From NCBI GenBank assembly GCA_016937995.1, contig JAFGVM010000016.1, forward strand, positions 18,570 to 82,569: a stretch of DNA of 64,000 nt. The letters are read 5' to 3'. A model generated the notes under the pieces. It was not told the DNA's origin and ran no database searches. It saw nothing but the letters and a program-made list of their open reading frames with translations. The position numbers and the translations under genes are program-made. Below, in pieces: positions 2,821 to 51,278 of the stretch (position 1 is the stretch's first letter; every line of letters starts with the position of its first letter). Source of the DNA: Candidatus Delongbacteria bacterium (GTDB taxonomy: Bacteria > UBA4055).

Positions 2821-2861
2821 AAGGTGTAAAAATGGAATAAAAAGTATTCAGTATATACATT

Positions 2862-3125: not shown

Positions 3126-3133
3126 AATAATCT

Positions 3134-3270: not shown

Positions 3271-3287
3271 AAATAACGGAAAAACAA

Positions 3288-11000: not shown

Positions 11001-11077
11001 TAGATCTTAAGAAGAAAACTGGTTCTATTGAATTAAAGTTTACACCGTTTGAAATTAAAACGCTGTATTTGGGATAA
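8015..11077 (+). CDS. Alpha-mannosidase, glycoside hydrolase family 38 (cytoplasmic, no signal peptide)
   Basis: 1020 aa. GH38 N-terminal motif HIDLAWLWPVRESRRKAGRTFSTAL. Domain order matches bacterial GH38 (MngB-like). Confidence 0.85.
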   Translation: MYDKIYTERIKQFMNRLAKLKYNDPVPLNAEYIHHKDTPIPYEKALKAKYKSIKVGAKWGDLWGCAWFKFTGKVPDEFIGKEVAVLINLDGEGCVFKNGEPEQALTNRNAWYINSGKYFYPITDKAKKGQKVELMVEAGANGLFGSQDDNIFKLKQAEIVTVDRKVYQLEIDMIVLFELMKKLPDNTPRKKKLLKGLNDIMNIWNNGEGIDEALNITKKLLSKKANQSAITAYSIGHAHIDLAWLWPVRESRRKAGRTFSTALKLMNEYPEYVFGSSQPQMYEWVKDDYPKLYSKIRKAVKDNRWEVQGAMWAEPDMNIPSGESLVRQCLYGKKFFKEEFGIDVRNLWLPDVFGYSAALPQILRKSGVDVFMTQKISWNETNKFPHHTFYWEGIDGTDILTHFLPTNNYNLSNYPKEMIESEERYAQSDVSDEFLNLYGIGDGGGGPSRIHIEMGKRQQNLEGVPKFKFSFAEDFFKKISKIPKKDLPEWTGELYLELHRGTYTTQGKMKKYNRDMEIALHDLEFLGTMIKKYPKETIDQIWKDTLLNQFHDILPGSSIEWVYKDAHELSEKNFGLIEQVFESFFSELFDIRYDDNLIGNYIAFNALSWDKEELIKYPLDGEGNYTITDCYGKNISWIINHGHIEFFVKIPSMGYTTFTISKADKVIKQNHTGKAGLTITETGVELENKFIKVTIDESGIITSIYDKEKDFEMVKFANKLLLWEDLPINWEAWDVNHYYKETKPEQAQRSSISIIGDSGHQVGIEQVLTIGNSTIIQSITIESGSKEIWIDNQVDWNEEKKFLKVHADTNIHSDFANYEIQFGKLKRPTHFNTSWDAARFEVPAQRYADLSQPDMGIAILNDCKYGHIINGTNIELSLLRSTKMPDEKADIGVHSFTYSYYPHNKDLEHSDVLQKAHELNDPNIVIPIKKLPKVKERSMFKIDSQSVKIDSVKRSEDGKGIILRLYETMGMNDNILLVFDKNYDVTETNLIEEKIIDLKKKTGSIELKFTPFEIKTLYLG

Positions 11078-16936: not shown

Positions 16937-16959
16937 ATAAACATTCCTCAATTAGTTTT

Positions 16960-16982
16960 GGGGACGAAAAGAATTCGTCCCC
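16960..16982 (-). terminator. Hairpin GGGGACGAAAAGAATTCGTCCCC
   Basis: Same stem as 11166-11188. It lies in the 50-bp gap 3-prime of the AAA ATPase gene. Confidence 0.6.
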
Positions 16983-16986
16983 TACA

Positions 16987-18288
16987 TTATTCATAACTTA
17001 ACAGAAAACGCCAAGCAGGTATCACATTTATCTTACCATTTTCTACTAATATTTCTTCATCATCATTTTTTGTAACTATTGTACCAGACTTCAAATTCAA
17101 TTCATTCATAGCCTCTACAAGAGCATTGACCTCTCTTTTACGGGTATTTTCATCGGTCATTGTTTCACATACTTGTATCAATTCTTTGCTTCGATCTTGT
17201 CTAAGAATAATAAAATCTACTTCTTTTCCATTTTTAGTCTTATAATAAAAAATATCCGTCGTTAATCTGCGAAGTGCGTTAAAAACAATATTTTCAAGTA
17301 AATGACCCGAATTAACCAAAATATTCGAACTCACTGATCTGATCATAGAATGATCAATGCAGTATATCTTTTTAGGATTTGCATTCGATCTTGAAATTGA
17401 AGCATCAAACATTCTTATAGTAAAAAGAAAATAAGCATCTTCAAACCATAAAAGATAATCACTGACAGTTGATTTTTGCACCTTATGACCGAGTGATTTA
17501 AGATATCCTGTAAGGTTATTTAAAGAATACAGAGAACCGATATTATCCATTAGCCTGTGAGCAAGATCTAAAACCGATTTAGGATGAAATACATCATAAC
17601 GTTCAATTAGATCACGAAATAAGACAGCATTAAAATATTCCTGATGTATCTTGATCCTCAATGAATCTTCAAGACCGGTTGTCTCTGGAAAACTACCCTC
17701 TCTAAAATAGTTATCAAAAGCCTTCTGCACGGTCAGTCTTTTTTTTGTTGTAAAAGCACCTTCTTGATCTATTCTGTTATATTTCAGAAATTCACTGAAT
17801 GAAAACGGAAATATTTCCCACGAAACAGACCTGCCCCGCATCTGAGATGCAATTTCTTTGGAAAGCATCTTTGCAGACGAGCCGGTTATATATACTTCAC
17901 AGTTTTCAGTACGAAGTATACGTTCAACGAAAGATTCCCATCCGTTTAATAACTGTATCTCATCAAAAAAACAATATACTTTCTCTGAATTTTTCTTTTC
18001 AGGAAATAACGAATAATACGCTTCGGTAATTATATTGAGTTCAGTATGCTGTAAAGGATAGAGTCTATCATCGAAAAAGTTAAGATATAAAATATTCTCT
18101 TTCTTAACTCCTTTCTTAAGCAACTTATCAATGATCTGGAACATCAGTGTAGATTTACCACTTCTGCGAACGCCTATACAAATTGTTGCTTTACCGGAAA
18201 TCGTTGAAATATTCATATCTCTAGAAACACCACAATTAAGTTTTGAATCTTGGAAGTTCAATATGATTTCTTTCAATGCACCAAGCAC
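16987..18288 (-). CDS. AAA+ ATPase with C-terminal DUF4143 (PD-(D/E)xK-like) domain, COG1373 family
   Basis: Walker A GVRRSGKST. Walker B CFFDEIQ. C-terminal EVDFIILRQDRSKELIQVCET nuclease-like motif. Confidence 0.8.
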   Translation of the reverse strand: MLGALKEIILNFQDSKLNCGVSRDMNISTISGKATICIGVRRSGKSTLMFQIIDKLLKKGVKKENILYLNFFDDRLYPLQHTELNIITEAYYSLFPEKKNSEKVYCFFDEIQLLNGWESFVERILRTENCEVYITGSSAKMLSKEIASQMRGRSVSWEIFPFSFSEFLKYNRIDQEGAFTTKKRLTVQKAFDNYFREGSFPETTGLEDSLRIKIHQEYFNAVLFRDLIERYDVFHPKSVLDLAHRLMDNIGSLYSLNNLTGYLKSLGHKVQKSTVSDYLLWFEDAYFLFTIRMFDASISRSNANPKKIYCIDHSMIRSVSSNILVNSGHLLENIVFNALRRLTTDIFYYKTKNGKEVDFIILRQDRSKELIQVCETMTDENTRKREVNALVEAMNELNLKSGTIVTKNDDEEILVENGKINVIPAWRFLLSYE

Positions 18289-31351: not shown

Positions 31352-33640
31352 TTAGAATTTTAAAGGTATTGAAATTGTAAACTTACTACCCTTACCATAT
31401 TTACTTTCAATCCATATCTTCCCATTATGTTTTTTTACAAATTCTTCACAAAGTAACAAACCTATTCCCGTACCTTTTTCATTCGATGTGCCCATAGTTA
31501 CAAAATGCTTATCCATTGAAAACAATTTCTTTTGATCTTTTTTCTTTATTCCAACTCCATCATCATGTACAGAGATAGTTGTACCCTGTTTATTCTTTGA
31601 AGATGAAATTGTTATATTACCGTCTTTATTAGTGAATTTTATAGAATTTGTTATCAAATTTCGCAATACAGTTCTAATCATATTTTTATCAGCATATATT
31701 CCGAGATTTTTTTTCATTTTGATCTTCATTGAAATATTTTTCATTTTCGCGCTTTGATTCAACAATAAAAATGTGGACTCAACAATTTCATATAAATTGA
31801 AATTTACGGGTTGAAACTGTTTTTTCCCACTTTGACTTCTTGACCATTCAAGTAAATTCTCTATTAGCTTTAAAATATGTTTTGACGATAATCTTATAGT
31901 ACTGATATATTCTACTCTTTTGGTCTCGGATAATTCTTTATAATAACTGGCTAGAATTTCCGATGTAGTATATAGTATTGAAAAAGGATTTTTTAGATCA
32001 TGTGCTAAAATATTAAAAAACCTGTCTTTTGAAGCATTTATTCTTTGCAATTCCTTTCTGGAATCCCTCAATTTCTCATTTGATTCTATCAGTTGAATAT
32101 TTTTCAATTTATATATTTCATTTTCTTTTTCTTTTTTCTCATTTTCATGTTTTAAGTACATATTAAATATCTCATTTTGCTTTTGAATATTTAATATTTC
32201 GTCATGAATATTTATAAATTTTTTATAACATTCTAACGATTTTTTGTATTTTCTCTGATCAGAATATATTTGGGACATTAGTTCATAATCATCCTGCAAT
32301 ACGTCTTTATGATCATATTTTTTAGCAATATTAAAACTCTTTTTTGAATACTCTTCTGCGTGTTTATAATCGTTTATTGTAAAATATAGTTTCGCTATGT
32401 TTATATAGGTTGTTGACAAACTTTTCTTTTCACCAAGTTCTTCAATTATTTTCATTGATTTATGCAGATGTTCTAAAGCTTTATCATGATCATTTAGTTT
32501 AAGATAAAGCATTCCAATACTTTTAAGAGTTTCAGCAACTCCAGTTCTATCAGCATCTTTAGTCCTAATATTTAAAGATTTTTTGTAATAATCCAAAGCC
32601 TTTTTAAAATCTTTCTTATTTTGATAAATATTCCCAAGGTTGTTATAAGAATCAGATATCCCTCTTCTGCTATTCATTTTTATTCTAAGATCGATTGCAT
32701 TGCTTTCATACTCAAGAGCTTTATCGTAATCTACAAGTTTATTAAACACGCTCCCAATATTACTTAGCGAATTGGCAATAGTAAGCAAATTATTAGATCT
32801 CTCTTTAATTTTGAGAGATTTAAACTGATATTTAAGAGCTTCAGAGTATAGTGCCATATCATAGTAAACTAATCCCAGATTATTTAAAACAAATGAAGAT
32901 TCTTTGATTAATTTTAAATCTTCAAATATCTTTAAAGCTTGATGACCAGTCTCCAATGCTTTCTTGAATTCACCTTTCTTATGATAAACAACCATCAAAT
33001 TATTTAAAGATGAACAAATCGATTTTTTAGATTCTTTATTCTTTTTTTTCAATTCGAAAGAATCATTCAGATATTTCAAAGCTTTTTTGTATTCACTTTG
33101 ATAATAATAATTTAGACCGATCCTATTTAAAGTTTGGGTTATTCCTTTGGATAATTTAAGCTCTTCTCGAATTTTAAGAGCTTTTTTTAAGTATTTCATA
33201 CTATCATTGTAATTTTCAATGGAAGCATAAGAATAGCCTATCGAATGATATAATATCGACAATACTCTCTTGTTACTTTTAGGTGTGATCTTTAAAGCTT
33301 GTAGAAAATAATCCAATGCCGATAAGAAATCATATTGCTCAATCTTAAGTAAACCAAGATTCTTAAGCAACCCAGGTTCTTTTAGTTTAAGGTCTTCTTT
33401 TTTAATAATATTTAAAGCTTTAATATAATGTTTTTCTGCTTCAGCATAATTTTTCTGCTCAAAATAAATGCCACCATAATTTATCAATGACACAGCTTCA
33501 TCGTGCTTATTTTTATTTTGAATACTTAATTTTAAAGTATTTTGAATTTCTTGAATTGATTTATCATACTTATGTTCAAAATAATTTTCTTGAGTATCAA
33601 ATTTATTTTTGTTTTTCAAATTCATAATCTGATCTATCAA
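31352..33640 (-). CDS. Cytoplasmic TPR-repeat sensor histidine kinase (no receiver, no TM)
   Basis: About 12 TPR units, a coiled coil, H-box FFNILAHDLKNPF and G2 box GTGIGLLLCEEF. Confidence 0.8.
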   Translation of the reverse strand: MIDQIMNLKNKNKFDTQENYFEHKYDKSIQEIQNTLKLSIQNKNKHDEAVSLINYGGIYFEQKNYAEAEKHYIKALNIIKKEDLKLKEPGLLKNLGLLKIEQYDFLSALDYFLQALKITPKSNKRVLSILYHSIGYSYASIENYNDSMKYLKKALKIREELKLSKGITQTLNRIGLNYYYQSEYKKALKYLNDSFELKKKNKESKKSICSSLNNLMVVYHKKGEFKKALETGHQALKIFEDLKLIKESSFVLNNLGLVYYDMALYSEALKYQFKSLKIKERSNNLLTIANSLSNIGSVFNKLVDYDKALEYESNAIDLRIKMNSRRGISDSYNNLGNIYQNKKDFKKALDYYKKSLNIRTKDADRTGVAETLKSIGMLYLKLNDHDKALEHLHKSMKIIEELGEKKSLSTTYINIAKLYFTINDYKHAEEYSKKSFNIAKKYDHKDVLQDDYELMSQIYSDQRKYKKSLECYKKFINIHDEILNIQKQNEIFNMYLKHENEKKEKENEIYKLKNIQLIESNEKLRDSRKELQRINASKDRFFNILAHDLKNPFSILYTTSEILASYYKELSETKRVEYISTIRLSSKHILKLIENLLEWSRSQSGKKQFQPVNFNLYEIVESTFLLLNQSAKMKNISMKIKMKKNLGIYADKNMIRTVLRNLITNSIKFTNKDGNITISSSKNKQGTTISVHDDGVGIKKKDQKKLFSMDKHFVTMGTSNEKGTGIGLLLCEEFVKKHNGKIWIESKYGKGSKFTISIPLKF

Positions 33641-35331
33641 ATATCTTCACTGGATTTTACACAATTCTTACCTGTGTTCTTTCCATAATACAATGCTTCG
33701 TCTGCCTTATTAATACTATAATCGATGTCCATGATCCTGTCGTAGACATGTACTCCGAATGTCATTGTTATCTTCAACTTAATATCACGATAATAAAATA
33801 TCTCATTCTCAATTTTTTTTCTTATTTTTTCTGCTACCAGCATTCCACCTTCAAGACTTGTTTTTGGCATGAGGAAAATAAATTCTTCTCCACCCCAGCG
33901 ACCTATATTATCCTGCTTTCTTAAAACTGATCTCATCAAATTGGCTAAATTAACCAGTACAAAATCTCCGCAGTCATGTCCGTAGTTATCGTTGAACCCT
34001 TTAAAATTATCTATATCAGATATCATTACTACAAATGACTCATTACTTCTTTCATATTTAAGGGCTTCATATTTTATTTTATCCAAAATATCTCTACGGT
34101 TCGATAATCTTGTCAAAGGATCTGTTCTGGCCAAAATATCCAGTTTTAAATAAGCTTCAGTAAGCTCTTTATTCTTTTTGTTTATTGTATCGTTAGCTCT
34201 TGTTAGATCCTTAATATATTTTGCAAGCTCAACATTTTTTAATCTATAAATTTCAGCTTCTTTTTCCTTTTGTTCAGAAATATATTTTGACTGTATTTCC
34301 GCTATATTACCTGATAATTCACCATAAACTGATTCATTGATTTTTGAATATTCTTTTAAACTCTCATAAGCTTTTTTATATTCTTTCATTTGTGAGTACA
34401 ACTCAGCAAATATTTCATAACTTTCCTGTATAACATCTTTGGAACCTATTTCTTTAGATTGCTCTAAAGCTATCTTTAGATATTTTTCGGCTTTTTTATA
34501 ATCTTTAAGTTTCATATATGTTCTGGCTGTTTCATTAGAAGTATTAGCATGGTTATACTTCATATTCAGATCTTCAGAAATTTTTAAAGCTTTCAAAAAA
34601 TTTTCCAAAGCAGTTTTATTGTCACCTTTATCTCTATAGATTATACCAAGATTATTATAAATTGAAGTATGTTCCTTTATATTATCGGTCTTGTCATACA
34701 ATTCCTTTGCTTTGAAATAATAATCTAATGCTTTATCATAATCTAGCAAAGCGGAGAATAGATTGCCTATATTATTGTATGATTTAGCTATAGCAACATC
34801 ATCTTTCAATTGTTTTCTGATCTTAAGTGATCTTTGATAGTGCTCAAGTGCTTTATTATAGTTTTTTAGTCTGTAGTAAATATTACCGATAGTGTTGAGA
34901 GAATCAGATATTCCCTTTTTATCACTGATCTCTTCTCTGATTTTCAACGACTTTAGATAGTACTCCAAAGCTTGATCATAATTACTCAATCTGAAATTAA
35001 CTTCACCGATATGGTTAAGAAAATTAGCCTGTTTTTTATCGTTTTTATTATTTTTAGATAATTCCAAACCCGTTTGATAATATATCAGAGCTTTATCATA
35101 CTCACTTTTTTCTCGGTATATATCACCTATCTTAACATAGATATCTGACTTTTTTACTTTGGTCAATATTTTATGACTAAGTTCAAGTGCCTGAAGATTA
35201 TAATCAAGACATTTATCAAGTGAAATATTCTGATAAATATCTGCAAGCTTATTTAGTATATCATATTTTTCTTTGCCTGAAGTTTTGCTTAAAAATTCCT
35301 CCAGCTCAGTAACTTCTTTCATACTGTTCAC
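33637..35331 (-). CDS. TPR-repeat diguanylate cyclase (GGDEF domain, GGEEF active site)
   Basis: TPR units plus RWGGEEF and DIDNFKGFND motifs. Overlaps the HK gene by 4 bp. Confidence 0.8.
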   Translation of the reverse strand: MNSMKEVTELEEFLSKTSGKEKYDILNKLADIYQNISLDKCLDYNLQALELSHKILTKVKKSDIYVKIGDIYREKSEYDKALIYYQTGLELSKNNKNDKKQANFLNHIGEVNFRLSNYDQALEYYLKSLKIREEISDKKGISDSLNTIGNIYYRLKNYNKALEHYQRSLKIRKQLKDDVAIAKSYNNIGNLFSALLDYDKALDYYFKAKELYDKTDNIKEHTSIYNNLGIIYRDKGDNKTALENFLKALKISEDLNMKYNHANTSNETARTYMKLKDYKKAEKYLKIALEQSKEIGSKDVIQESYEIFAELYSQMKEYKKAYESLKEYSKINESVYGELSGNIAEIQSKYISEQKEKEAEIYRLKNVELAKYIKDLTRANDTINKKNKELTEAYLKLDILARTDPLTRLSNRRDILDKIKYEALKYERSNESFVVMISDIDNFKGFNDNYGHDCGDFVLVNLANLMRSVLRKQDNIGRWGGEEFIFLMPKTSLEGGMLVAEKIRKKIENEIFYYRDIKLKITMTFGVHVYDRIMDIDYSINKADEALYYGKNTGKNCVKSSEDI

Positions 35332-40380: not shown

Positions 40381-40927
40381 AATTTTTTTCAATTAAATAA
40401 ACAGAATCTTCTTTGTCAATTTCTGACAATTTAACTCTGATCTCTTGAGTAGGGAGTGTTTTTACTACTTCACCTACATAATCAGGTTTTACAGGAAGCT
40501 CTCTTAACCCTCTGTCTATCAGAGCTGCAAATTGAATTATTTTTGGTCTTCCTCTATCCATCAGTGCATTTATCGCGGCTAAAATGCTTCTCCCGGTAAA
40601 TACAACATCATCAACGAGGATTATTTTTTTATCATCAATAGAAAAAGGCATATCGTCTATAGAAATGTTCGGGACCTTCAAATTTATTCTAAAATCATCT
40701 CTATATAAGGTTGCATCTAGCACACCAGTCTCTATTTCGATATTTTCGCTACTGTTGATTTCTTCAATTATCCTGTTAGCCAGAAATTCTCCTCTTGTTT
40801 TTAAACCAACAATTACAAGTTTATATATTCCTTTGTAGTCTGCAATAATTTCAGAAGAAATCCTTTTAATAACCTTATGAAGTTTGTCATCATCCATTAT
40901 AGTATGGATTATATTTTCTTTTGTCAT
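40379..40927 (-). CDS. pyrR: Bifunctional pyrimidine operon regulator / uracil phosphoribosyltransferase PyrR
   Basis: PRTase motif ILVDDVVFTGRS. 182 aa. Confidence 0.85.
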   Translation of the reverse strand: MTKENIIHTIMDDDKLHKVIKRISSEIIADYKGIYKLVIVGLKTRGEFLANRIIEEINSSENIEIETGVLDATLYRDDFRINLKVPNISIDDMPFSIDDKKIILVDDVVFTGRSILAAINALMDRGRPKIIQFAALIDRGLRELPVKPDYVGEVVKTLPTQEIRVKLSEIDKEDSVYLIEKN

Positions 40928-40960
40928 TCAATTATCCCTTAATTTACTATTCTCAAAAAA

Positions 40961-43723
40961 TTAATCGATCCAATCCAACAAAGAATCATCAGCTGAATCT
41001 TCTACTGTTTCTTCTTTGCTTTTTGTTTCTTTACTTTTCTCAGGTTCTATATCGCTCCACTGATCATTTTCATCAACTAAGATTTTTTTACTGTCAGTGT
41101 TTGAAAATAATTCATTTACATCATCTTCAGTGAAAGAATCCTCTTCATCAGCTGACTGGTTTATTTGAACACTACTATTCTCTTTATCTGATTCCTTTAT
41201 ACGTATTATATCCTCATCTGTTAAATATTCACTTCTGTCAATAATAAATTCAGACTTACCTATTTCATCAAGATCGTCATCAAATGACTGACTTTCCTGA
41301 ATAGATGAATCCTCCATTGAAATATTTTCAAAATCGTCATCATCTATTTTATTTTCAAAGGCATTCTCTATTTCCTCTTCGGTTTTTGAATCAACTTCTT
41401 CATCTTCTTCGATCTTTGATTCAGTCGGAGATAAATTTTCAAATATATCCTCTTCAGTATCATCAGAATTAACTTCTGTTAATTCCTCTTTTATTTCTAC
41501 AGGTTCATCTGCAATAATTTCTTTTTCTTCTTCAACAGCTGATTCGGTCGGAGATAAATTTTCAAAGATATCCTCATCTGTGCTGTCAGTATCTTCAACT
41601 ACTTTTTCTTCAGGTTCTTCTTCTTTTATTTCTTTTTCTTCTTCAACGATTTGCTCTTTCTCTTCTTCTATACCTTGGATATTTTCATTTTCATCTTCTA
41701 TATCCGACTCTGTGGAAGAAATTTCTGATAAAACCGTTTTTGTTTCTTCATCAAACTCTTCAATATATGAATTAACCTTCTCTTCATCTGTCAGTTGCTC
41801 TTCTTCTATTTCGGATTTATCAGGCAAATTGTTTAGATCATTGTCTTCACTGGCTCTTTTTTCTGCAGATTCAAGAACTTCCATTTCTCTTTCAAGAAAT
41901 TCTTTATTATCATCATCTTCATCAAATGATTCATCATTTGACTCTGTTCCAAGCTCTTTTGCAAGATCTTTGCTGCTAACTGACTCCATTTCAGATCTTT
42001 CAAGGATGTCTTCCGCATCCTCCTGCACCCTGTCTACCCTAAATACTTCACTCTTATCTATTGTTTCGCTTACCTGAGATTTCTTAGAATCAAATACATC
42101 GTTAACCATATTTGTTCCATCATCTTCACTTAAATTGTTTTCACTGGATAAAACATCGTCATAGTTACCATCAGCGAAAGAATTTGTTGCAAGATATTCT
42201 CTTCTTCTCGGGAACATATTATTAATTTGACCTGCTTTCTGTCTTACCTGATCTCCGGAAAGTTCTCCTTCCCTGCTGATCTTTATTGCACTCTTTTTAC
42301 CGGTATCAGGATCTTTTGCAGTAGCATGAATAATGCCATTCACATCATATTCATAATTGAAAATGATCGGTTGTCCTGCGTCTTTAGGCGGAAAATTCAG
42401 CACAGTTGTCCCGATTACTGTACAAAATTCAGGATCCGGATCTTCACCCTGGATCACTATCATTTTAACTTGACTCTGCTTAGGTATTGAAGTATAAAAT
42501 ATCTGGCTTTTTCTCACCGGTATTTTACTATTCTTTGGTATGATTACGGCATTTCTTTTGTTATCGAACTCATCCAAAGTAATCGCACCAAAACTATGCG
42601 CAGTAACATCTGAAATATTAATTGCTCCATACTTCATACGGACCATCGCATTGACTTCCTGGTCACTTTCATCTTTTGCTGACAGAATACCAGCTTGAAT
42701 AGCAGCTCCAAGGGCAACTGCTTCGTCTGGATTTATCTGTTGTGAAGGCTTTTTACCTGTAACTCTGGTGATCATATCATGGACTGCCGGCATCCTGGTT
42801 GAACCACCGACCAGAAGAATCTGATCAATATTTTCCCATTCAAGATCAGCATCGGTCATTACTGCATTTATCAATAACTCTGTTCTTGTTACATAGTCGG
42901 CAACTAAGTCGGAGAATAATTTTCTTGTTATGGTTAATTTTGTTGATTTTCCTGTAGCAGACAAATAAACCGTTGTACTAATTTTTGAAGAAAGTACTTT
43001 TTTTGCATTTTCTGCTTTCAATCTCAGATCCTGTTTTAACACTGGATCAGCAAATAGGTCAATATCGTACTGCTGTTTAAATTTTTCGTTTAAGTATATC
43101 ATCAGTTTTTCATCGAAGTTGTCTCCACCCAACTGACGGTCACCGTCACTCGCGATCACATCAAACACACCTTCGTTCAACTGCATGATAGTTACATCAA
43201 AAGTTCCACCACCAAGATCATATACTAATATTTTTTGCTCTAATTTTTTGTCCAGACCGTATGTTAGAGCCGCTGCAGTTGGCTCATTAATGATCTGTAA
43301 AACATTTACTCCTGAAACTTTTCCGGCATCTATTGTAGCTTTTCTCTGCTTATCATTGAAATAAGCAGGAACAGTAATAACAACATCGGTAATAGTTTCA
43401 TTAAGAAAGCTCTCAGCATCATCAACCAGCTTTCTCAGGATCATTGCAGAAATATCTTCCGGAGTATAGTCTGTTCCTTTGTTGGAAAAATGAAAATCAG
43501 AAGAGCCAATATGAGCTTTTATAGACGAAATCGTTTTATCCGGTTCTGCAACTGACGACTGCTTTGCAATACTGCCTACAATAATTTGATCATCATCAAA
43601 TAAGACGACCGAAGGTGTTATTCTCTCTCCTTCTTTGTTAGGAATAATTTCAGCTTTTCCAAATTCGTTGACCATTGCTATTGCAGAATTTGTTGTTCCC
43701 AGATCTATTCCGATCAATTTCAT
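40961..43723 (-). CDS. Hsp70-family paralog (NBD + beta-SBD, no helical lid) with roughly 400-aa acidic repetitive C-terminal tail
   Basis: MKLIGIDLGTTNSAIAMV, DLGGGTFDVTIM and IINEPTAAALTYG motifs. The tail is E/D/S-rich with duplicated EEDIFENLSPTES blocks. Confidence 0.8.
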   Translation of the reverse strand: MKLIGIDLGTTNSAIAMVNEFGKAEIIPNKEGERITPSVVLFDDDQIIVGSIAKQSSVAEPDKTISSIKAHIGSSDFHFSNKGTDYTPEDISAMILRKLVDDAESFLNETITDVVITVPAYFNDKQRKATIDAGKVSGVNVLQIINEPTAAALTYGLDKKLEQKILVYDLGGGTFDVTIMQLNEGVFDVIASDGDRQLGGDNFDEKLMIYLNEKFKQQYDIDLFADPVLKQDLRLKAENAKKVLSSKISTTVYLSATGKSTKLTITRKLFSDLVADYVTRTELLINAVMTDADLEWENIDQILLVGGSTRMPAVHDMITRVTGKKPSQQINPDEAVALGAAIQAGILSAKDESDQEVNAMVRMKYGAINISDVTAHSFGAITLDEFDNKRNAVIIPKNSKIPVRKSQIFYTSIPKQSQVKMIVIQGEDPDPEFCTVIGTTVLNFPPKDAGQPIIFNYEYDVNGIIHATAKDPDTGKKSAIKISREGELSGDQVRQKAGQINNMFPRRREYLATNSFADGNYDDVLSSENNLSEDDGTNMVNDVFDSKKSQVSETIDKSEVFRVDRVQEDAEDILERSEMESVSSKDLAKELGTESNDESFDEDDDNKEFLEREMEVLESAEKRASEDNDLNNLPDKSEIEEEQLTDEEKVNSYIEEFDEETKTVLSEISSTESDIEDENENIQGIEEEKEQIVEEEKEIKEEEPEEKVVEDTDSTDEDIFENLSPTESAVEEEKEIIADEPVEIKEELTEVNSDDTEEDIFENLSPTESKIEEDEEVDSKTEEEIENAFENKIDDDDFENISMEDSSIQESQSFDDDLDEIGKSEFIIDRSEYLTDEDIIRIKESDKENSSVQINQSADEEDSFTEDDVNELFSNTDSKKILVDENDQWSDIEPEKSKETKSKEETVEDSADDSLLDWID

Positions 43724-43812
43724 TTAATTCCTCCAAAATAAGTGCTGATGAATATAATTTTACTCAATGAGTGCTTTTGTAATACTGAACTGTGATTAAT
43801 TATATGCCTGAT

Positions 43813-44349
43813 TTATTTTTTTATCAATTTTCTTCTAGCTTGAGAAATAATAGCCAGCATCTCTTCAGCTTCATATCTCATTTTAATATTTGGAGAATTA
43901 ATCCTGGTTCTCCATTTTCTAAATTCAGCATTTATACGTTCTTTGATCTCTTCTTCACTTGAATCAGAATCCATCCTTAAAGCTTTAAAATAAAACCTGT
44001 CATCCCGCTCTTCGGTGGATCTTATATTCAATAAATTAGTGCTTTCTTTTTCAAGAGTTTTGTTTACTGCCTGGTCTTTTTTCTTCTGTTTTTCGGCAGC
44101 TTCCTGCTTAATATGTTCAATCCTTTTATTTACGACTTTTAAATTGTGTTGGGCATCAGTATTTTCAGGATCATAATATAACGCTTTTTCAAAGAATTTT
44201 TTACTATTTTCATAATCTTCTCTTTTATAGTAAGCAACAGCTTGGTCATAGTGAACCTTACTTTTCTTTTTTTTAATATCATCTAGATGTGATGTTTTAT
44301 TTTTCTTCGATGATATTTTATCAGTTATTTTTGAAAACAAAGATGTCAT
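43813..44349 (-). CDS. TPR-like protein with C-terminal degenerate J-like helix pair (no HPD)
   Basis: YYKREDYENSKKFFEKALYYDP TPR. C-terminal ..FYFKALRMDSDSSEEEIKERINAEFRKW..KMRYEAEEMLAIISQARRKL resembles J-domain helices II/III without HPD. Confidence 0.35.
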   Translation of the reverse strand: MTSLFSKITDKISSKKNKTSHLDDIKKKKSKVHYDQAVAYYKREDYENSKKFFEKALYYDPENTDAQHNLKVVNKRIEHIKQEAAEKQKKKDQAVNKTLEKESTNLLNIRSTEERDDRFYFKALRMDSDSSEEEIKERINAEFRKWRTRINSPNIKMRYEAEEMLAIISQARRKLIKK

Positions 44350-44356
44350 TTGATAC

Positions 44357-45178
44357 CTAATTTGCAGAATGTTTATAGATCTGAACTATCTCAGGCCTGA
44401 TCACTGATTCTCCCTTCACGAATCCTTCTTTAAGAACTTTCTTAATAGTATTATCCCTCTCGATTTCGTCTGTCCCAATTTTTTCGACAGCATTACTTTT
44501 TTCAGCATTAAATTTATCACCTTCCTTACTCTTCTCCACCGGAACTACATCATTTCTGTATAGGATTTCAAGTAGTTCATCTCTAAAAGTCATCATACTT
44601 TCAGAATGGGTATGATCTTCACTTGATCCAAAATGATCGATATCAGTACTTATACGGTCATATAGCAATAAAAGGTCGTGAAGAAAAGGTTTCATTGCCG
44701 AATCAACAAAATTTCTTTTGTATGAATCCAACTGTGAATATAATTCTTCAAAAGCTTTCTCTTTAACTTCGTCAGCATTGATCTTTTCTTTAAAAAGATC
44801 TGACACCCTGTTTATTCCCTCTTCTGTTTCAAATTTGAACAACAAGATATTATTCTGCATTTTCTGAAGTGACTGTAAAATCTCATTCTTATTACTGAAT
44901 AACATTTCATTGATATTGAGCATTTTATCTTCGATCTTTTTTATTCTTACATCAAGATCTTCCTTGATCTCATCCATCTGCGAATTTAATCTATCACTTT
45001 GCTCAATTATATCTTCCTTTACTCCTTCTTCGTCACTGTCTATCAAATTATCATCTGAGTAAAGTCCAGAGTCATTCAACTCTTCAATGATATCATCGAA
45101 ATAATAATCTGAATTAAAAATTTCAGATTTCATATCTCTAAGCTCATTTTTACTAAATTCTTTTTCACTTTGTATCAT
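44357..45178 (-). CDS. GrpE-like nucleotide-exchange factor with extended acidic N-terminus
   Basis: C-terminal ..FNAEKSNAVEKIGTDE..KKVLKEGFVKGESVIRPEIVQIYK matches the GrpE C-terminal beta-domain pattern. Confidence 0.5.
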   Translation of the reverse strand: MIQSEKEFSKNELRDMKSEIFNSDYYFDDIIEELNDSGLYSDDNLIDSDEEGVKEDIIEQSDRLNSQMDEIKEDLDVRIKKIEDKMLNINEMLFSNKNEILQSLQKMQNNILLFKFETEEGINRVSDLFKEKINADEVKEKAFEELYSQLDSYKRNFVDSAMKPFLHDLLLLYDRISTDIDHFGSSEDHTHSESMMTFRDELLEILYRNDVVPVEKSKEGDKFNAEKSNAVEKIGTDEIERDNTIKKVLKEGFVKGESVIRPEIVQIYKHSAN

Positions 45179-45203: not shown

Positions 45204-46958
45204 TTATTGTGAATTGGATATCACTCTAAATTCGATCCTTCTATTTTTTGCTCTTCCTTCTTTACTTTTGTTTGAAGCGACCGGTATTTCTTCTCCAAAA
45301 CCTACTGCTTTGATCTGAGAACTGGAAATGTTCAGTTCTGTTATTAGATAATTGTATACCGATTCAGCTCTTTTTTGAGAAAGGTTCAAGTTATATGCGG
45401 CACTTCCCTGACTGTCAGTATGACCTTCTATTTGAATTACGATATTAGGATTGTCTATGAATATCCGTTTTACTTTGTTCAAAGTAGGGAAAGAATTTGT
45501 AGTAAGTTCAGCTTTACCTGTTTTGAAGTAAATATTATCCAGAACAATTCTCTCATCTTTCTTTAGAATTATCGCATCAGGACATCCATCATCATCTTCA
45601 AATCCATTTAATGTTTCTGCCATGTTCGGACACTTGTCCAAAGTATCTTTTATACCGTCTTGATCATTATCAAATTCTGGACATCCATCCTGATCTTCGA
45701 AACCGTCAAGATCTTCAGGTTCGTTTGGACACTTATCAGTTGCATCAGGAATTCCATCATCGTCATTATCCAACTCTGGGCATCCATCAAGGTCCTCATA
45801 ACCATCCATATCTTCAGGTTCGTTTGGACATTTATCATCCACATCCTTAATACCGTCTTTATCATTATCATCCTCTGGACATCCATCTTCATCCTCATAA
45901 CCGTCTAAATCTTCAGCTATATTTGGACATTTATCTGCCAGATCTTTAACACCGTCTTTATCATTATCATCCTCTGGACATCCATCTTTATCTTCAAATC
46001 CATCAAAATCTTCTGGATCCTTAGGACACTTATCCAGCTTATCAATTATTCCATCCTTATCCGCATCCAATGATACAACAAGTCTGGTCATTGAAAATCC
46101 TACGAAGGCCTGCCATTTTGGAGATTCCTCGTTTAGTCCCCCGTAGCCACCGTATGTTAAATAGTAGTATTCTCCAAAATTATGACGCAAACCACCTCCG
46201 AGCCTTTGCGGGAAGATATTCCGGTGAGTTAAATTCAGTTCATATTCTGCATCATATTCCATGAACAGCTTTGTGTTCTTTGATGTTCTTGCATCAAAAC
46301 CGGCACCTAATGTAAATATATCAGGCAACTCGGTAGAATATCTTAGTACGTAGCCTGTGTTAAGCATAAAATTAAATTTGTCGTTTCCAATGGATGTGAG
46401 TAGTTTTGCCCCTCCACTGATCTTGTTATTATACAGAAGTTCATCACTGAAATTTCTATGATCATAATAGTAATTGCCGTTATTTTGGTAATCAGAAAAA
46501 TCAGGATCAAGTTCATCGTATACAGGGAATGTTATGAAAAAATAAGATCCAAAATTGACTAAGCCTTTGTTTTTAAAAGAGTATTTAAATCCAAGTTCAG
46601 TGTTGTTAATATCTGATAAAGAAACTTTCGAACTGTCTGGAATCTGCCTTTTATCGTATGCAAAAGATATCTTTGCATTTAAATCTATTCTTTCAGTCAA
46701 TCCGTAAGAGACGCTAAAATGAGTAGTTGATTGAAAATAATCTGACAAAGATATGGATTCAACAATATTATCTGATATAGTTGAACTGGCACCTAAAACA
46801 GAATTCAGACTTAATGACAAGAAACCATAACCATTTGTTGATGCATCAAGAAGTTTTATATAGCCTTTTTGACCATTGATCGAAACTTTTGAGAAAGAAA
46901 GCGCTGAGATCAATAGTAGTAGGATTATGGTCATTCTTTTTGCCTTATATATTTTCAT
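45204..46958 (-). CDS. OmpA-family outer-membrane protein with five thrombospondin type-3 repeats
   Basis: N-terminal barrel. DKDG(V/I)KDxxDKCPN repeated five times. C-terminal OmpA domain (GHTDSQGSAAYNLNLSQKRAESV). Confidence 0.85.
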   Translation of the reverse strand: MKIYKAKRMTIILLLLISALSFSKVSINGQKGYIKLLDASTNGYGFLSLSLNSVLGASSTISDNIVESISLSDYFQSTTHFSVSYGLTERIDLNAKISFAYDKRQIPDSSKVSLSDINNTELGFKYSFKNKGLVNFGSYFFITFPVYDELDPDFSDYQNNGNYYYDHRNFSDELLYNNKISGGAKLLTSIGNDKFNFMLNTGYVLRYSTELPDIFTLGAGFDARTSKNTKLFMEYDAEYELNLTHRNIFPQRLGGGLRHNFGEYYYLTYGGYGGLNEESPKWQAFVGFSMTRLVVSLDADKDGIIDKLDKCPKDPEDFDGFEDKDGCPEDDNDKDGVKDLADKCPNIAEDLDGYEDEDGCPEDDNDKDGIKDVDDKCPNEPEDMDGYEDLDGCPELDNDDDGIPDATDKCPNEPEDLDGFEDQDGCPEFDNDQDGIKDTLDKCPNMAETLNGFEDDDGCPDAIILKKDERIVLDNIYFKTGKAELTTNSFPTLNKVKRIFIDNPNIVIQIEGHTDSQGSAAYNLNLSQKRAESVYNYLITELNISSSQIKAVGFGEEIPVASNKSKEGRAKNRRIEFRVISNSQ

Positions 46959-50093: not shown

Positions 50094-51278
50094 TTAGTAA
50101 TCCATTACACATCTGAAACCAACGTTATTACCTTTCCATTTCTTGCCTTTTACCTCTCTCTTGGAAACAGTCAGTTCTGATTTCAGATCTTTCCAGCTTC
50201 CACCTCTGATTATTCTATAATCTTCACCATATTCTTTATCAAGTTTTCCTCCAGGATATGGTTCAGGAATAGACGATGTCCATTCAGCAACGTTACCTGA
50301 AAGATCATATAATTTAAAGTCATTAGGACCATAACTCTTGACATCGAATGGTCCGTCAGTAGTTGGGTTCAGATCATAACAGGCATCTTTTGGTGAGATA
50401 GAATTACTGTAAGGATATTTTAAACCGACAAGACCTCCACGTGCAGCTTTTTCCCATTCCTGCTCAGTTGGAAGACGTTTCCCTGCCCATTTAGCATAAG
50501 CCTCAGCATCCTCATAGGAAACACCAACAATTGGTTGCTTTGCACTGTTAAATCTATCTGATTTCACTCTATCAGGCAGTGTATATCCAGTTTCTTCTAC
50601 AAATATCCTAAACTGCTGTAAAGTTACCTCATGTTCATCAATATAAAATTCCTTAATATACACTTTGTGAACAGGTCTTTCATTAACCGTTTCGTCATTA
50701 CTGCCGATCAGCACTTCATCTGACGGTATTAATACCATGTTCATATTATCTTTTAATGCAGTATAATACTGCATTTCACGTTTGATCCGCTTTATAACAG
50801 GAACTGTATCTTTTTTGTTAGCTGAAGATTTTTTTGCTTCAGCAGCAGCTAATTCCTTCTTTAATCTTTCCTCTTCCTCTAAACGCTTTTTTTCAGCTTC
50901 TTCCTTAGCCTTTGGATCAATATTTTTCATAAATTCCTGAAATAAACTGTCCGCAGTAATAACGTATTGACCGAATTTTTCATTTTTTTTAAGTCCTTCA
51001 ACATATTCCTTACCCGGTGCTGTAAATTCCAACAGATAAATTGCACCAACAAAAATGATTACAAGTAACAATAATAATTTCCCAAGATTCCCTGATTTTT
51101 TTTCACCAACTGGTTTTTGTTTTTTTGACGAAGAAGTATTTGAAGAATATTTACTTGGTGCTTGTTGAACAGCTACTTTTTTCTCTGGTTTTGATGCTCC
51201 GGACGCTAATTTAGTACCACAATTCACACAATTTTTAGCATCATTTGAATTAAGTGTATTACATTTTTTACAAATCAT
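50094..51278 (-). CDS. Zinc-ribbon / single-TM / FGE-sulfatase (SUMF1) domain protein
   Basis: N-terminal CKKCNTLNSNDAKNCVNCG. TM helix. C-terminal FGE motifs RIIRGGSWKD and GFRCV. Confidence 0.75.
   Translation of the reverse strand: MICKKCNTLNSNDAKNCVNCGTKLASGASKPEKKVAVQQAPSKYSSNTSSSKKQKPVGEKKSGNLGKLLLLLVIIFVGAIYLLEFTAPGKEYVEGLKKNEKFGQYVITADSLFQEFMKNIDPKAKEEAEKKRLEEEERLKKELAAAEAKKSSANKKDTVPVIKRIKREMQYYTALKDNMNMVLIPSDEVLIGSNDETVNERPVHKVYIKEFYIDEHEVTLQQFRIFVEETGYTLPDRVKSDRFNSAKQPIVGVSYEDAEAYAKWAGKRLPTEQEWEKAARGGLVGLKYPYSNSISPKDACYDLNPTTDGPFDVKSYGPNDFKLYDLSGNVAEWTSSIPEPYPGGKLDKEYGEDYRIIRGGSWKDLKSELTVSKREVKGKKWKGNNVGFRCVMDY

Follow-up and report, generated by a model that had tools for sequence, protein, structure and literature searches.

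A lid-less Hsp70 co-encoded with GrpE-like and TPR/J-like proteins: a probable specialised chaperone machine of Delongbacteria

In the 64-kb window (the whole stretch of DNA that was analysed, 64,000 nucleotides), a lid-less Hsp70 is co-encoded with a GrpE-family exchange factor of its own and with a small adaptor that combines one TPR with a J-domain homologue. On balance, we favour the view that this triad constitutes a self-contained, vertically inherited and specialised Hsp70 machine of Delongbacteria, which has a rewired J–Hsp70 interface and probably derives from lid-less short Hsp70 paralogues.

Gene organization and genomic setting of the triad

The three genes are closely packed on the minus strand in the order GrpE-like, TPR + J-like and Hsp70, in agreement with the original prediction of three co-directional genes. 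The ORFs encode 273 aa (45178..44357), 178 aa (44349..43813) and 920 aa (43723..40961), and are separated by gaps of 7 nt and then 89 nt. The Hsp70 ATG is preceded, at a distance of 7 nt, by a GGAGG Shine-Dalgarno sequence. The region's best sigma-70-like promoter match, TTGATA-17-TATAAT (11/12), is located just upstream of the Hsp70 gene (43799..43827, minus strand); it serves as a lead only, because the total of promoter-like sites is not above shuffled expectation. The fetched Delongbacteria-type loci comprise 14 with a complete triad and four, on short or cut contigs, with part of it. None of the 14 fully covered loci departs from this order, including those with different upstream genes, and the triad genes are intact and conserved across the fetched loci, arguing that the features of the triad are not due to chance.

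The Delongbacteria triads neighbour ligA, a gene for an OmpA/TSP3 protein and pyrR-pyrB-pyrC, a core-chromosome and syntenic setting. This bears on the reading that the triad supplies the chaperone part of a biological-conflict or defence system, comparable to the GAP1-N2 GTPase-linked HSP70-GrpE-DnaJ/TPR modules or to the STAND/EAD cluster of Microcystis. Conflict systems centred on GTPases do include HSP70 and GrpE alongside partners fused to DnaJ or TPR (Kaur et al. 2020, PMC7159879), and a related short Hsp70 of Microcystis sits in a cluster of the order GrpE-Hsp70-Hsp70-J/TPR-170 aa-TraG/VirD4-like-EAD4/WD40, beside an nSTAND/NACHT-TPR pair. However, none of the examined Delongbacteria triad loci contains a gene for a GTPase, STAND protein, effector or mobile element, PADLOC gives no relevant match, and throughout the lineage the locus shows synteny and vertical inheritance, not a patchy distribution. 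We consider a role in conflict highly improbable.

The Hsp70: folded domains, ancestry and tail

The Hsp70 (920 aa, 40961..43723, minus strand; 691–966 aa among orthologues) matches Pfam HSP70 with 455 bits and, as anticipated, keeps the nucleotide-binding domain (NBD) and the beta-sandwich, both of which are confidently modelled by AlphaFold2. In the NBD (aa 1–352, 42668..43723), delimited by alignment to E. coli DnaK, the residues D8, K70, E171, D194, T199 and D201 are conserved in 39/39 orthologues, and the segments equivalent to Ec 77–89, 95–104, 209–212 and 286–291 are deleted. The Hsp70 lacks the lower salt bridge R56-E264 and keeps K55-E267. DnaK alignment and AlphaFold2 place the altered linker and the SBD-beta sandwich (aa 373–489) at 42257..42667; the linker is longer, with about 15 residues inserted after the DnaK D388 position and VLLL replaced by INIS (aa 367–373), and the pocket residues are kept, with F426 as F, V436 as V, I438 as M/L and M404 as L. 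As judged from alignment and model, the ATPase active site of the Hsp70 is complete, the residues that relay signals from substrate to ATPase are retained, as is a hydrophobic pocket for peptides, and there is no lid. The proposal that an acidic tail replaces the lid holds as to the tail, which is disordered and acidic, but the lid is not wholly gone. A helix-A stub of 14 residues stays (aa 490–503, 42215..42256; AlphaFold2 secondary structure), the relatives of ~507 aa stop at the same point, and a conserved FPRRREY motif (504–510) lies between helix A and the tail.

Sequence and model evidence indicate that this protein is not a canonical DnaK, supporting the predicted specialised Hsp70 rather than a housekeeping one. 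Its scores are below both NCBIfam DnaK equivalog cut-offs (491 versus 648 and 476 versus 822 bits) and below the HscA cut-off too, and its identity to E. coli DnaK is 37–43%, versus 58% and 62% for the two canonical DnaKs of M. xanthus (PMC11019930). In a rough neighbour-joining tree, which carries no support values and has outgroups from E. coli only, it is nested inside a clade of ~507-aa naturally lid-less Hsp70 paralogues. These nearest relatives, Hsp70-family proteins of Firmicutes and cyanobacteria, also adjoin GrpE genes.

The same evidence bears on whether the triad is the organism's sole DnaK-GrpE-DnaJ system, devoted to housekeeping proteostasis with lineage-specific decoration. The GrpE-J-Hsp70 order resembles grpE-dnaK-dnaJ operons, the setting is that of a vertically inherited core-chromosome locus, and neither the 64-kb window nor about 350 kb of sequence from related loci contains a canonical dnaK, dnaJ or grpE. 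Against this stand the DnaK scores far under the cut-offs, the low identity, the missing lid, and a J partner lacking HPD, G/F region, zinc finger and client-binding domain. Furthermore, the nearest relatives come from Firmicutes and cyanobacteria, in which canonical DnaK is standard. Across bacteria, dnaK is found in 98.9% of genomes (PMC11019930), and a described class of DnaK derivates, in which the lid is truncated and an unstructured C-terminal addition is present, is always accompanied by a bona fide DnaK in the surveyed genomes (PMC13580251). We infer a dedicated paralogue over an only DnaK, and regard a sole housekeeping system as improbable.

Beyond the stub, the Hsp70 continues as a polyanionic disordered tail (aa 513–920, 40964..42187; about 408 residues) with 38% D+E, a net charge of −119 and pLDDT <50, a weak helix at aa 607–624 being the sole exception. 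Column conservation over 33 orthologues reveals the motifs VNDVF (540–544), DDDFENISMEDSS (795–807), GKSEFIIDRSEYLTDEDI (822–839) and SFTEDDVNELF (863–873). The tail ends in LLDWID (40964..40981), of the general form [IL]-x-D-W-[IL] followed by 1–8 mostly acidic residues, and D-W is present in 33/33 aligned orthologues although tail lengths vary from about 190 to 460 aa. This motif is not always at the extreme C-terminus, which speaks against an EEVD-TPR-like pairing. The description as a repeat tail was borne out by one internal duplication (41393..41592), two 77-nt copies (41393-41469 and 41516-41592) with 78% identity and 123 nt apart, and was otherwise overstated, with TRF finding only short arrays of 23–50 nt. 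The duplication encodes the exact 12-aa EDIFENLSPTES twice, at aa 717–728 (41540-41575) and aa 758–769 (41417-41452), and the residue preceding this peptide differs between the copies (DEDIF versus EEDIF). The DNA repeats predicted at 41421-41458 and 41541-41578 overlap these peptide-coding segments, but their ends are off by 1–6 nt. In P0081, a close relative, the same tail region has undergone a longer tandem duplication (~65 aa).

The GrpE-like protein, the adaptor and the J–Hsp70 interface

The GrpE-like nucleotide exchange factor (273 aa, 44357..45178, minus strand) matches Pfam GrpE with 51.4 bits, over the threshold of 25.8 bits, across aa 137–268 (44375..44770; profile positions 35–164 of 165), and its alignment to E. 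coli GrpE extends over about residues 60–197. Both the GrpE-like C-terminus and an acidic N-terminal extension had been predicted. The extension (aa 1–75, 44954..45178) has 33% D+E and a net charge of −18, and holds a conserved aromatic motif, SEIFNSDYYFDDIIEELxxSGLYS (aa 18–41, 45056-45127), which is kept in Delongbacteria-type GrpE-like proteins but which neither E. coli GrpE nor the GrpEs adjoining short Hsp70s possess. All organism-named proteins among its 45 homologues, as among the 34 homologues of the 178-aa protein, are from MAGs of the candidate phylum Delongbacteria.

The 178-aa adaptor (43813..44349, minus strand; pI 9.6, net +12; AlphaFold2 mean pLDDT 83) begins with hydrophobic and then polybasic residues and contains, as foreseen, a TPR plus a J-like region without HPD. 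The single TPR and its capping helix span aa 31–78 (44116..44259; TPR_2 28.1 bits, Fis1_TPR_C 28.7 bits), with the Pfam match covering one repeat (aa 31–63). The capping helix runs on to about aa 107 as a long helix rich in K and E (modelled helices 21–42, 46–59 and 64–107, pLDDT >90), and Y34, Y40, Y41, K42, N48, S49, F53, K55, P61, N63, N69 and L70 are invariant in the TPR region. The J-like domain (aa 112–175, 43825..44016) is modelled as helices 112–123, 132–149 and 155–175, a helix-loop-helix arrangement in which S152-P153-N154 (43888..43896), aligned to HPD, occupies the helix II–III loop. The 178-aa protein has no direct match to Pfam DnaJ, and hhalign assigns the domain a probability of 19% against canonical class A/B J domains. 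A PDB-sequence profile search aligns helices I–III with the J domain of Thermus DnaJ2 at E = 0.38; this alignment pairs the DnaJ2 HPD with RTR (148–150), not SPN. The J/TPR protein of Microcystis has a Pfam-positive J domain that aligns ungapped to the J-like domain with 32% identity (BLASTP E = 3e-10), and through this one intermediate the J-like domain is, by sequence comparison, homologous to J domains. At the HPD position, the 34 homologues have SPN (25), SQN (3), SSN (3), SAN (1) or SPD (1), with one unmatched by the pattern, and none has H. Helices II and III are almost invariant (26/62 columns invariant), including FRKWRT in helix II and EAEEMLAIISQA in helix III.

In the canonical pair, D35 of DnaJ hydrogen-bonds R167 and Q378 of DnaK, H33 bonds L391, and D481 clamps R167/I168 (Mayer 2021, PMC8215388). 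Alignment to E. coli DnaK places Q143 (43295-43297) at the R167 position and N462 (42338-42340) at the D481 position. The R167 position is Q in 39/39 orthologues versus R in 76/80 short-clade proteins, and the D481 position is N in 38/39 orthologues. Sequence comparison thus shows the canonical trigger contact lost on both sides, with HPD becoming S-x-N/D, R167 becoming Q and D481 becoming N. The J tripeptide and Hsp70 residue 167 form a graded series of HPD with R in Microcystis, NPD with K in Limnochordia, TSD or SPD with Q in basal Delongbacteria-type lineages, and S[PQSA]N with Q in crown Delongbacteria. The two do not strictly co-vary: Q167 pairs with S-P-D as well as with S-P-N, which does not establish D35N/R167Q as a specific compensation.

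These changes could also reflect a decayed, catalytically dead J domain, leaving the 178-aa protein as a TPR adaptor or inhibitor only, with the Hsp70 ATPase stimulated by housekeeping DnaJ or by substrate alone, or with the Hsp70 itself serving canonical DnaK as co-chaperone or NEF-like partner. HPD is missing in 34/34 homologues, its middle residue varies among P, Q, S and A as for a relaxed site, Pfam DnaJ finds no match, and HPD-less J-like proteins such as Pam16/Tim16 are regulators, not activators. In addition, NBD-containing DnaK derivates have been proposed as DnaK co-chaperones (Goloubinoff et al. 2026, PMC13580251). However, the near-invariance of helices II and III points to a maintained binding surface, not decay; housekeeping DnaJ is an unlikely activator, because the Hsp70 has lost both R167, which canonical HPD requires, and the D211 loop; and the full SBD-beta pocket and allosteric path are kept, unlike in Hsp110-like derivates. 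We regard this account as rather unlikely.

A proposed machine and its known counterparts

In the specialised machine that we favour, the J-like domain would still dock on its cognate Hsp70 at the interface between NBD and SBD-beta through a rewired contact, and the J-like protein would be mainly a targeting or regulating subunit, not a classical HPD-dependent ATPase trigger. Neutralisation of the R167-D481 clamp, together with the absence of a lid, may yield a looser clamp with fast substrate on and off rates. The dedicated GrpE-like protein would reset the nucleotide state and is presumably needed because the GrpE-contact loop of the Hsp70 (Ec 286–291) is remodelled. Charges within the triad are complementary (tail −119, GrpE N-extension −18, adaptor +12), and the hydrophobic-polybasic N-terminus of the basic adaptor may serve as a membrane tether for the machine or may feed into the SBD.

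Several parts of this machine have counterparts in known systems. The aromatic-acidic N-terminal motif of the GrpE-like protein probably acts on the SBD, like the GrpE N-tail. The polyanionic tail may correspond, in greatly enlarged form, to the short C-terminus of DnaK, which is likewise acidic and disordered, and may display short docking motifs; its bulk and charge would increase entropic pulling and solubility. Human P58IPK, a TPR + J co-chaperone, is the top Foldseek match, at only E = 0.03. By analogy with EEVD-TPR pairing, the best candidate for a ligand of the co-encoded TPR is the invariant DW motif of the Hsp70 C-terminus, although the adaptor has one and a half TPRs, whereas the EEVD-binding carboxylate clamp has three repeats.

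Gene organization, genomic setting and distribution

The three co-directional genes of the original prediction are found exactly at the predicted coordinates, all on the minus strand: a GrpE-like gene (45178..44357, 273 aa), a TPR/J-like gene (44349..43813, 178 aa), whose product we refer to as the adaptor, and an Hsp70 gene (43723..40961, 920 aa). The spacers within this triad are 7 nt and 89 nt, and no intrinsic terminator-like site lies between its ORFs on the coding strand. Promoter-like sites overall are not enriched in the region; the strongest sigma-70-like match in 11.5 kb (TTGATA-17-TATAAT, 11/12) is located at 43799-43827 (-), overlapping the 3' end of the J-like gene and preceding the Hsp70 gene. 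This match suggests a possible internal promoter, which would uncouple expression of the Hsp70 from that of both partners. Identical proteins in databases, from a 'Candidatus Delongbacteria bacterium' MAG, carry only the generic annotations 'nucleotide exchange factor GrpE', 'tetratricopeptide repeat protein' and 'Hsp70 family protein'.

The DNA around the triad is core chromosome, with SecY, Adk, S4, RpoA, L17, uracil-DNA glycosylase, LigA and an OmpA/thrombospondin-repeat protein encoded upstream, and pyrR-pyrB-pyrC and an aroE/aroK fusion downstream. Such a setting bears on whether the triad is a defence or conflict module, a reading that comes to mind as HSP70 and GrpE with DnaJ- or TPR-fused partners are described by Kaur et al. 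2020 (PMC7159879) as modules of GTPase-centred conflict systems. We consider it extremely unlikely here: the synteny is that of housekeeping genes, a PADLOC defence-system scan gave no relevant match, and no GAP1-N2/DO-type GTPase, FNIII/DnaJ partner, tubulin or effector gene was found among the Pfam-scanned window ORFs or among the genes and syntenic neighbours of the Delongbacteria-type loci, i.e., the fetched loci that carry the triad.

The order GrpE-like - TPR/J-like - Hsp70 is intact in 14/14 fully covered loci, comprising 10 GTDB species-representative loci, one 'Cloacimonadota'-labelled MAG and three more divergent metagenomic lineages. Altogether 13 GTDB-representative loci (Delongbacteria/UBP11-type MAGs or unclassified bins) were considered, of which 10 are complete and three are short or cut contigs with a partial triad. 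The upstream neighbours of the triad vary among lineages.

Two flanking genes deserve mention. A 584-aa OmpA-family protein with five thrombospondin type-3 (calcium-binding) repeats (45204-46958, minus strand) ends 25 nt upstream of the GrpE-like gene, an adjacency kept in most Delongbacteria loci and missing in loci L003, L025 and L027. On the other side, pyrR starts 33 nt past the Hsp70 stop codon (window 40927-40961), which leaves no space for an attenuator leader of the PyrR type. Scanning 37.5-47.5 kb with Rfam gave no match to a PyrR or other leader RNA. Either pyrR/pyrB/pyrC or pyrC alone lies 3' of the triad in every lineage, despite differing upstream genes (loci L003, L008-L017, L019 and L025-L027), which may reflect co-transcription of the pyr genes with the chaperone genes or simple synteny.

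Elsewhere in the window, two unusually long ABC-transporter proteins with other domains fused to the permease domain are encoded at 275-5573 (+), one of 817 aa (SBP_bac_1 + BPD_transp_1) and one of 761 aa (a weak Glyco_hydro_42-like stretch + BPD_transp_1), with a GH38 alpha-mannosidase gene downstream (8015-11077). The stretch 14726-18288 (-) encodes a 741-aa protein that joins a caspase-like Peptidase_C14 domain to an FGE-sulfatase (formylglycine-generating-enzyme-like) domain and, next to it, an AAA_14/DUF4143 ATPase, and a second FGE-sulfatase-domain protein is encoded at 50094-51278. The segment 30000-38000 is low in GC (27-29% versus ~34-39% elsewhere) and includes genes for a TPR-histidine kinase (31352-33640) and a TPR-GGDEF diguanylate cyclase (33637-35331).

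The lid-less Hsp70 and its acidic tail

The window Hsp70 scores 455 bits on Pfam HSP70 (PF00012) and misses the NCBIfam equivalog models for DnaK (NF001413 / TIGR02350; 491 against a cut-off of 648 and 476 against 822) and for HscA (374 against 620 and 372 against 709). Its identity to the proteins of E. coli MG1655 is 37% (tblastn) or 43% (481 trimmed columns) for DnaK, 36-37% for HscA and 32-34% for HscC. The best non-orthologous matches are ~507-aa proteins of Thermoactinomycetaceae, Limnochordia and Microcystis (48-52% identity), which databases name only 'Hsp70 family protein'. In a neighbor-joining tree, which carries no support values and includes few outgroups, the window protein branches apart from E. 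coli DnaK, HscA and HscC, and the Delongbacteria clade is nested inside that of these short lid-less relatives.

For a comparison residue by residue, 39 orthologues and 80 short relatives were aligned to E. coli DnaK, whose numbering (Ec) is used here. The catalytic residues D8, K70, E171, D194, T199 and D201 are kept in 39/39 orthologues. The substrate-to-ATPase signalling residues (P143, D148, R151, K414-D326, V440, and L484 as I) are also kept, together with P419 and Q378 and the hydrophobic peptide pocket (F426, V436, I438 as M/L, M404 as L). R167 is replaced by Q in all 39 orthologues and is R in 76 of the 80 short relatives, while D481 is replaced by N in 38/39 orthologues. In place of the VLLL linker there is (I/M)N(V/I)(S/A), with an insertion of ~15 residues just before it, after the DnaK D388 position. 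The lower nucleotide-cleft salt bridge R56-E264 is gone and K55-E267 is retained. Four segments are deleted, Ec 77-89, 95-104, 209-212 and 286-291; the third is the loop bearing the J-contact D211, and the fourth overlaps the GrpE-signature loop, placed in DnaK at Ec 290-295 (Mayer 2021, PMC8215388).

An AlphaFold2 model built with a 40-sequence alignment contains a confident NBD and beta-sandwich (beta strands at aa 369-480) followed by a single helix at 490-503, and pLDDT falls below 50 over aa 513-920, bar one weak helix at 607-624. As helix 490-503 is the only part of the lid that is predicted, the lid is cut down to a helix-A stub. Alignment and model together thus describe a member of the Hsp70 superfamily with an intact actin-fold NBD and SBD-beta and, beyond this stub, no helical lid (helices A-E).

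The short relatives have in common with the window Hsp70 the NBD deletions (Ec 77-104, 209-212, 286-291), the altered linker and a GrpE gene immediately upstream, and in Limnochordia and Microcystis a partner of the same J-domain subtype is encoded near the short Hsp70. They end right after helix A, at ~aa 507, whereas the Delongbacteria proteins continue into a polyanionic tail of 190-460 aa with conserved motifs and bear Q for R167. Two loci of this clade hold further genes. In a Limnochordia-type locus (L006, 5246-6299), downstream of GrpE and a 510-aa Hsp70, there is a gene for a protein of 131 aa that has low-complexity GGNYGGNYGGGNYGG repeats and a hydrophobic tail rich in Cys, and then, two genes downstream of the Hsp70, one for a 218-aa protein of the same J-like subtype (NPD) whose N-terminal domain has no Pfam match. 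The Microcystis locus (L004, 1-15527) encodes GrpE, two Hsp70s (525 and 508 aa), a J/TPR protein, a 170-aa protein, a TraG/VirD4-like ATPase and an EAD4/WD40 giant protein, and adjoins a divergent nSTAND/NACHT + TPR pair; this cluster looks like an undescribed chaperone-containing conflict system and recalls, by analogy, those of Kaur et al. 2020.

Judged by its sequence, the window Hsp70 is not a canonical DnaK, as it lacks an equivalog-level score, the VLLL linker and the R167/D481 clamp. No canonical dnaK/dnaJ/grpE is encoded within the 64-kb window or the fetched loci, and the triad could in principle be the only DnaK system of the organism. That reading is very unlikely in view of the DnaK model scores and the clade membership, and literature priors also speak against it: dnaK is present in 98.9% of bacterial genomes (PMC11019930), and DnaK 'derivates' never occur in the surveyed genomes without a bona fide DnaK (PMC13580251). 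The original proposal of a specialised system rather than a housekeeping DnaK is therefore probably right in essence, given the missed DnaK equivalog cut-offs and the membership of the short lid-less clade.

The tail (aa 513-920) consists of 38% D+E and 9% K+R, with a net charge of -119 and a pI of 4.05, and its length ranges from ~190 to 460 residues across 33 orthologues. Conserved in these orthologues are VNDVF (aa 540-544), DDDFENISMEDSS...GKSEFIIDRSEYLTDEDI (aa 795-839) and SFTEDDVNELF (aa 863-873), and a C-terminal [IL]xDW[IL], followed by 1-8 mostly acidic residues, is invariant. FPRRREY (aa 504-510), directly after helix A and just before the tail, is conserved as well. This pattern of short motifs within a rapidly evolving acidic spacer argues that the tail is a functional disordered region. 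Canonical DnaK has an acidic disordered C-terminal tail of ~30 residues, which plays a part in client handling and includes an EEV element (Mayer 2021), and we infer that the Delongbacteria tail is a much enlarged version of this element.

An acidic repeat tail had been anticipated from the sequence. Its low complexity and one internal duplication stand, the latter consisting of two 77-nt copies with 78% identity, 123 nt apart, that encode EDIFENLSPTES twice, and a larger duplication of the same region is present in a close relative. A tandem-repeat array is rejected, as TRF gives only short arrays of 23-50 nt. Opposite the tail, a 165-aa serine-rich ORF at 41580-42077 (+) simply mirrors the GAA/GAT-rich tail codons, and nothing marks it as a gene.

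The adaptor, the GrpE-like protein and the loss of the HPD trigger

The adaptor is basic (pI 9.6, net +12). Pfam detects TPR alone, with one repeat above threshold (TPR_2, PF07719, 28.1 against 27; Fis1_TPR_C, PF14853, 28.7 against 25.3). In the AlphaFold2 model (mean pLDDT 83, disordered N-terminus), helices 21-42, 46-59 and 64-107 form one TPR and a capping helix extended as a long K/E-rich helix, and helices 112-123, 132-149 and 155-175 form a C-terminal bundle. Peptide-binding TPR domains normally contain at least three repeats; as only A1-B1-A2 is modelled, a classical three-repeat clamp would be absent unless the adaptor oligomerises. In a full-library profile search over 1.84 billion representatives, most matches were generic multi-TPR proteins, and the complete TPR + J-like architecture was seen in only ~12 of the 50%-identity clusters.

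Conservation in the adaptor is highest in its C-terminal 60 residues, with 26/62 columns invariant. Their J-domain homology is established through a single intermediate, the J domain of the Microcystis J/TPR protein, whose gene neighbours one for a related short Hsp70. This J domain scores 44.7 bits on PF00226 and matches the adaptor without gaps (BLASTP E = 3e-10, 32% identity); direct detection by Pfam and hhalign is negative or weak. Specifically, PF00226 gives no match on the adaptor up to E = 10, hhalign against six canonical J domains gives 19% probability, a Limnochordia relative matches PF00226 at E = 0.17, and the precomputed DnaJ match of one family member is 'faint'. A profile search of PDB sequences matched the J domain of Thermus DnaJ2 over helices I-III (E = 0.38), with HPD against RTR (148-150), four residues ahead of SPN; this shift arises from four extra pre-HPD residues between helices I and III in adaptor-type J domains. 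The best Foldseek match in the PDB is human P58IPK, a TPR + J protein (E = 0.03), among mostly TPR proteins with none at E <= 0.001, so structure comparison lends no confirmation to the J fold.

In the Microcystis-based alignment the HPD position falls on S152-P153-N154, which AlphaFold2 puts in the helix II-III loop. Across 34 close homologues the tripeptide is SPN in 25, SQN in three, SSN in three, and SAN and SPD in one each, with one unmatched by the pattern and H in none, and more distant family members have SPD or TSD. The 'J-like without HPD' assignment thus stands up, and the C-terminal domain is best described as a genuine but degenerate J-domain homologue with a predicted helix II-loop-helix III fold. 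Delongbacteria J partners lack the H and mostly the D of HPD and are fused to a single TPR, whereas J partners in the short clade carry multi-TPR/TM or beta-rich domains instead.

The adaptor has a conserved N-terminus in which a run of lysines comes after two or three hydrophobic residues, and in several members its amphipathic moment exceeds the 95th percentile of background. This segment could serve as a membrane-targeting helix or as a DnaK-type binding motif. The Microcystis J partner has predicted C-terminal TM segments, as read from its sequence, and E. coli DjlA, DjlB and DjlC are membrane-anchored.

The GrpE-like protein combines, as foreseen, a GrpE-like C-terminus with an acidic N-extension: Pfam GrpE (PF01025) matches aa 137-268 at 51.4 bits against 25.8, covering profile positions 35-164 of 165, and the first 75 residues are 33% D+E. 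NCBIfam species-level GrpE equivalogs are missed (28 against 164), and the C-terminal half aligns to E. coli GrpE residues ~60-197. The N-extension contains SEIFNSDYYFDDIIEELxxSGLYS (aa 18-41), which is kept in the Delongbacteria family and, in the alignment, is found neither in E. coli GrpE nor in the GrpEs accompanying short Hsp70s. As the N-terminal tail of GrpE is reported to act on the DnaK SBD (PMC12633562), a similar action of this extension is plausible by analogy. GrpE is characteristically a dimer that binds the NBD of Hsp70 and speeds up the release of ADP. Because Ec 286-291 is deleted, any Hsp70-GrpE contact must be remodelled, and a private GrpE fits with such a remodelled loop.

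In the DnaK-DnaJ complex, HPD D35 forms hydrogen bonds with R167 and Q378, H33 bonds with the carbonyl of L391 and P34 packs on P419, and DnaK D481 clamps R167/I168 in the ATP state (Mayer 2021, PMC8215388). In the triad the charged partners of this trigger are neutralised together (HPD to S-x-N/D, R167 to Q and D481 to N), with P419 and Q378 unchanged. Across systems, the pairings of tripeptide and residue 167 form a graded series, from HPD with R in Microcystis, through NPD with K in Limnochordia and TSD or SPD with Q in basal Delongbacteria-type lineages, to S[PQSA]N with Q in crown Delongbacteria. A strict D35N/R167Q compensatory pair is ruled out, since Q167 accompanies both D and N, occurring also with S-P-D and T-S-D partners.

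The series does show that the canonical trigger decayed on both proteins, while two helices of the J-like domain, II (FRKWRT) and III (EAEEMLAIISQA), remained almost invariant. Loss of the trigger could also mean that the J-like domain is dead and that the Hsp70 depends on housekeeping DnaJ or serves as a DnaK co-chaperone. We regard this as unlikely, as the strong conservation of the J-like helices argues against a dead domain and the loss of R167 argues against housekeeping DnaJ as the activator. Rather, the J-like domain probably still binds its cognate Hsp70 via a rewired interface, as a targeting or regulatory subunit.

A putative specialised chaperone machine and its relation to known systems

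Taken together, the alignments show the triad to be a complete, conserved Hsp70/NEF/J-like set with an intact ATPase site and peptide pocket. The triad is probably a specialised chaperone machine whose clamp is looser and whose clients exchange fast; DnaK truncations of similar length, engineered to lack the lid, retain interdomain allostery but let go of peptide faster. In this machine the Hsp70 would be reset by its own GrpE-like protein and targeted or regulated by the adaptor. By analogy with EEVD-TPR recognition, the adaptor TPR would be a natural candidate receptor of the invariant DW motif, and the bulk and charge of the tail could favour entropic pulling and solubility. Combined into one picture, an HPD-R167-free Hsp70 machine would have its J-like domain regulating or tethering through a rewired interface, and its tail would serve both as a docking hub (DW-TPR, an independent bacterial counterpart of EEVD-TPR) and as an entropic bristle amplifying pulling force, possibly at a membrane; in this full form we hold the picture to be distinctly unlikely.

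The Hsp70 mechanism rests on three near-universal elements, the client-trapping helical lid, the HPD that fires ATP hydrolysis and the R167/D481 contacts. In the triad, as it occurs in nature, each of these elements is either missing or neutralised, and its active site, peptide pocket, the rest of the J domain and private GrpE are strongly constrained across the fetched Delongbacteria-type lineages. If the J-like protein does control the Hsp70, J-Hsp70 communication can be HPD-independent; if the tail does dock on the TPR, bacteria have a parallel to EEVD-TPR co-chaperone networks. The triad also offers a tractable three-protein handle on what the many bacterial 'DnaK derivates' (PMC13580251) do.

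Our literature search found no description of the triad, and several known systems share parts of it. E. coli HscC resembles the window Hsp70 in a lobe-I deletion (Ec 76-101), in lacking both the D211 loop and the GrpE signature loop, and in N at 481, and it has a dedicated co-evolved J protein (DjlC/DjlB, class C). However, HscC retains a shortened lid and R167 and is predicted not to interact with GrpE, and DjlC, unlike the HPD-less domain of the adaptor, has HPD and is likely membrane-associated (PMC8215388). The two Hsp70s share 32-34% identity and lie on separate branches.

The mitochondrial import motor contains mtHsp70, the GrpE homologue Mge1 and Pam16/Tim16, a conserved J-like protein without HPD, and is thus, like the triad, a set of Hsp70, GrpE-family NEF and HPD-less J-like protein. 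The common theme is possibly a J-like domain that acts as a regulator or tether. Yet Pam16 forms a heterodimer with the HPD-bearing Pam18, whereas the triad operon encodes no HPD-bearing partner; mtHsp70 is a canonical DnaK-type protein with a lid, and the evolutionary tie to the triad goes no further than the J-domain superfamily.

Among eukaryotic co-chaperones, P58IPK/DNAJC3 and DNAJC7 have N-terminal TPRs followed by a C-terminal J domain, as in the adaptor, and the window Hsp70, with an acidic disordered tail that bears a conserved terminal motif, follows a logic comparable to that of EEVD. The adaptor differs in having ~1.5 TPRs instead of 3-9 and no HPD, and its fold match to P58IPK is not significant; the Delongbacteria motif is [IL]xDW[IL] rather than EEVD and in some proteins stops short of the extreme C-terminal end.

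In bacteria, the DnaK 'derivates' of Myxococcota are additional Hsp70 paralogues in which the lid is shortened or deleted and the C-terminus carries unstructured additions (PMC13580251). The triad, unlike these derivates and the conflict modules, is a single conserved copy in a housekeeping neighbourhood and lacks a GTPase, tubulin or effector context; the available parts of PMC13580251 and PMC7159879 say nothing of an HPD-less J domain matched by R167Q/D481N. Extra bacterial Hsp70 paralogues with dedicated partners are already established, as in HscA/HscB, HscC/DjlC, the myxobacterial derivates and the conflict modules. What sets the triad apart is a motif-bearing polyanionic tail in place of the lid, a TPR joined to an HPD-less J domain, the matched loss of R167 and D481, and a GrpE with an acidic, motif-bearing extension.
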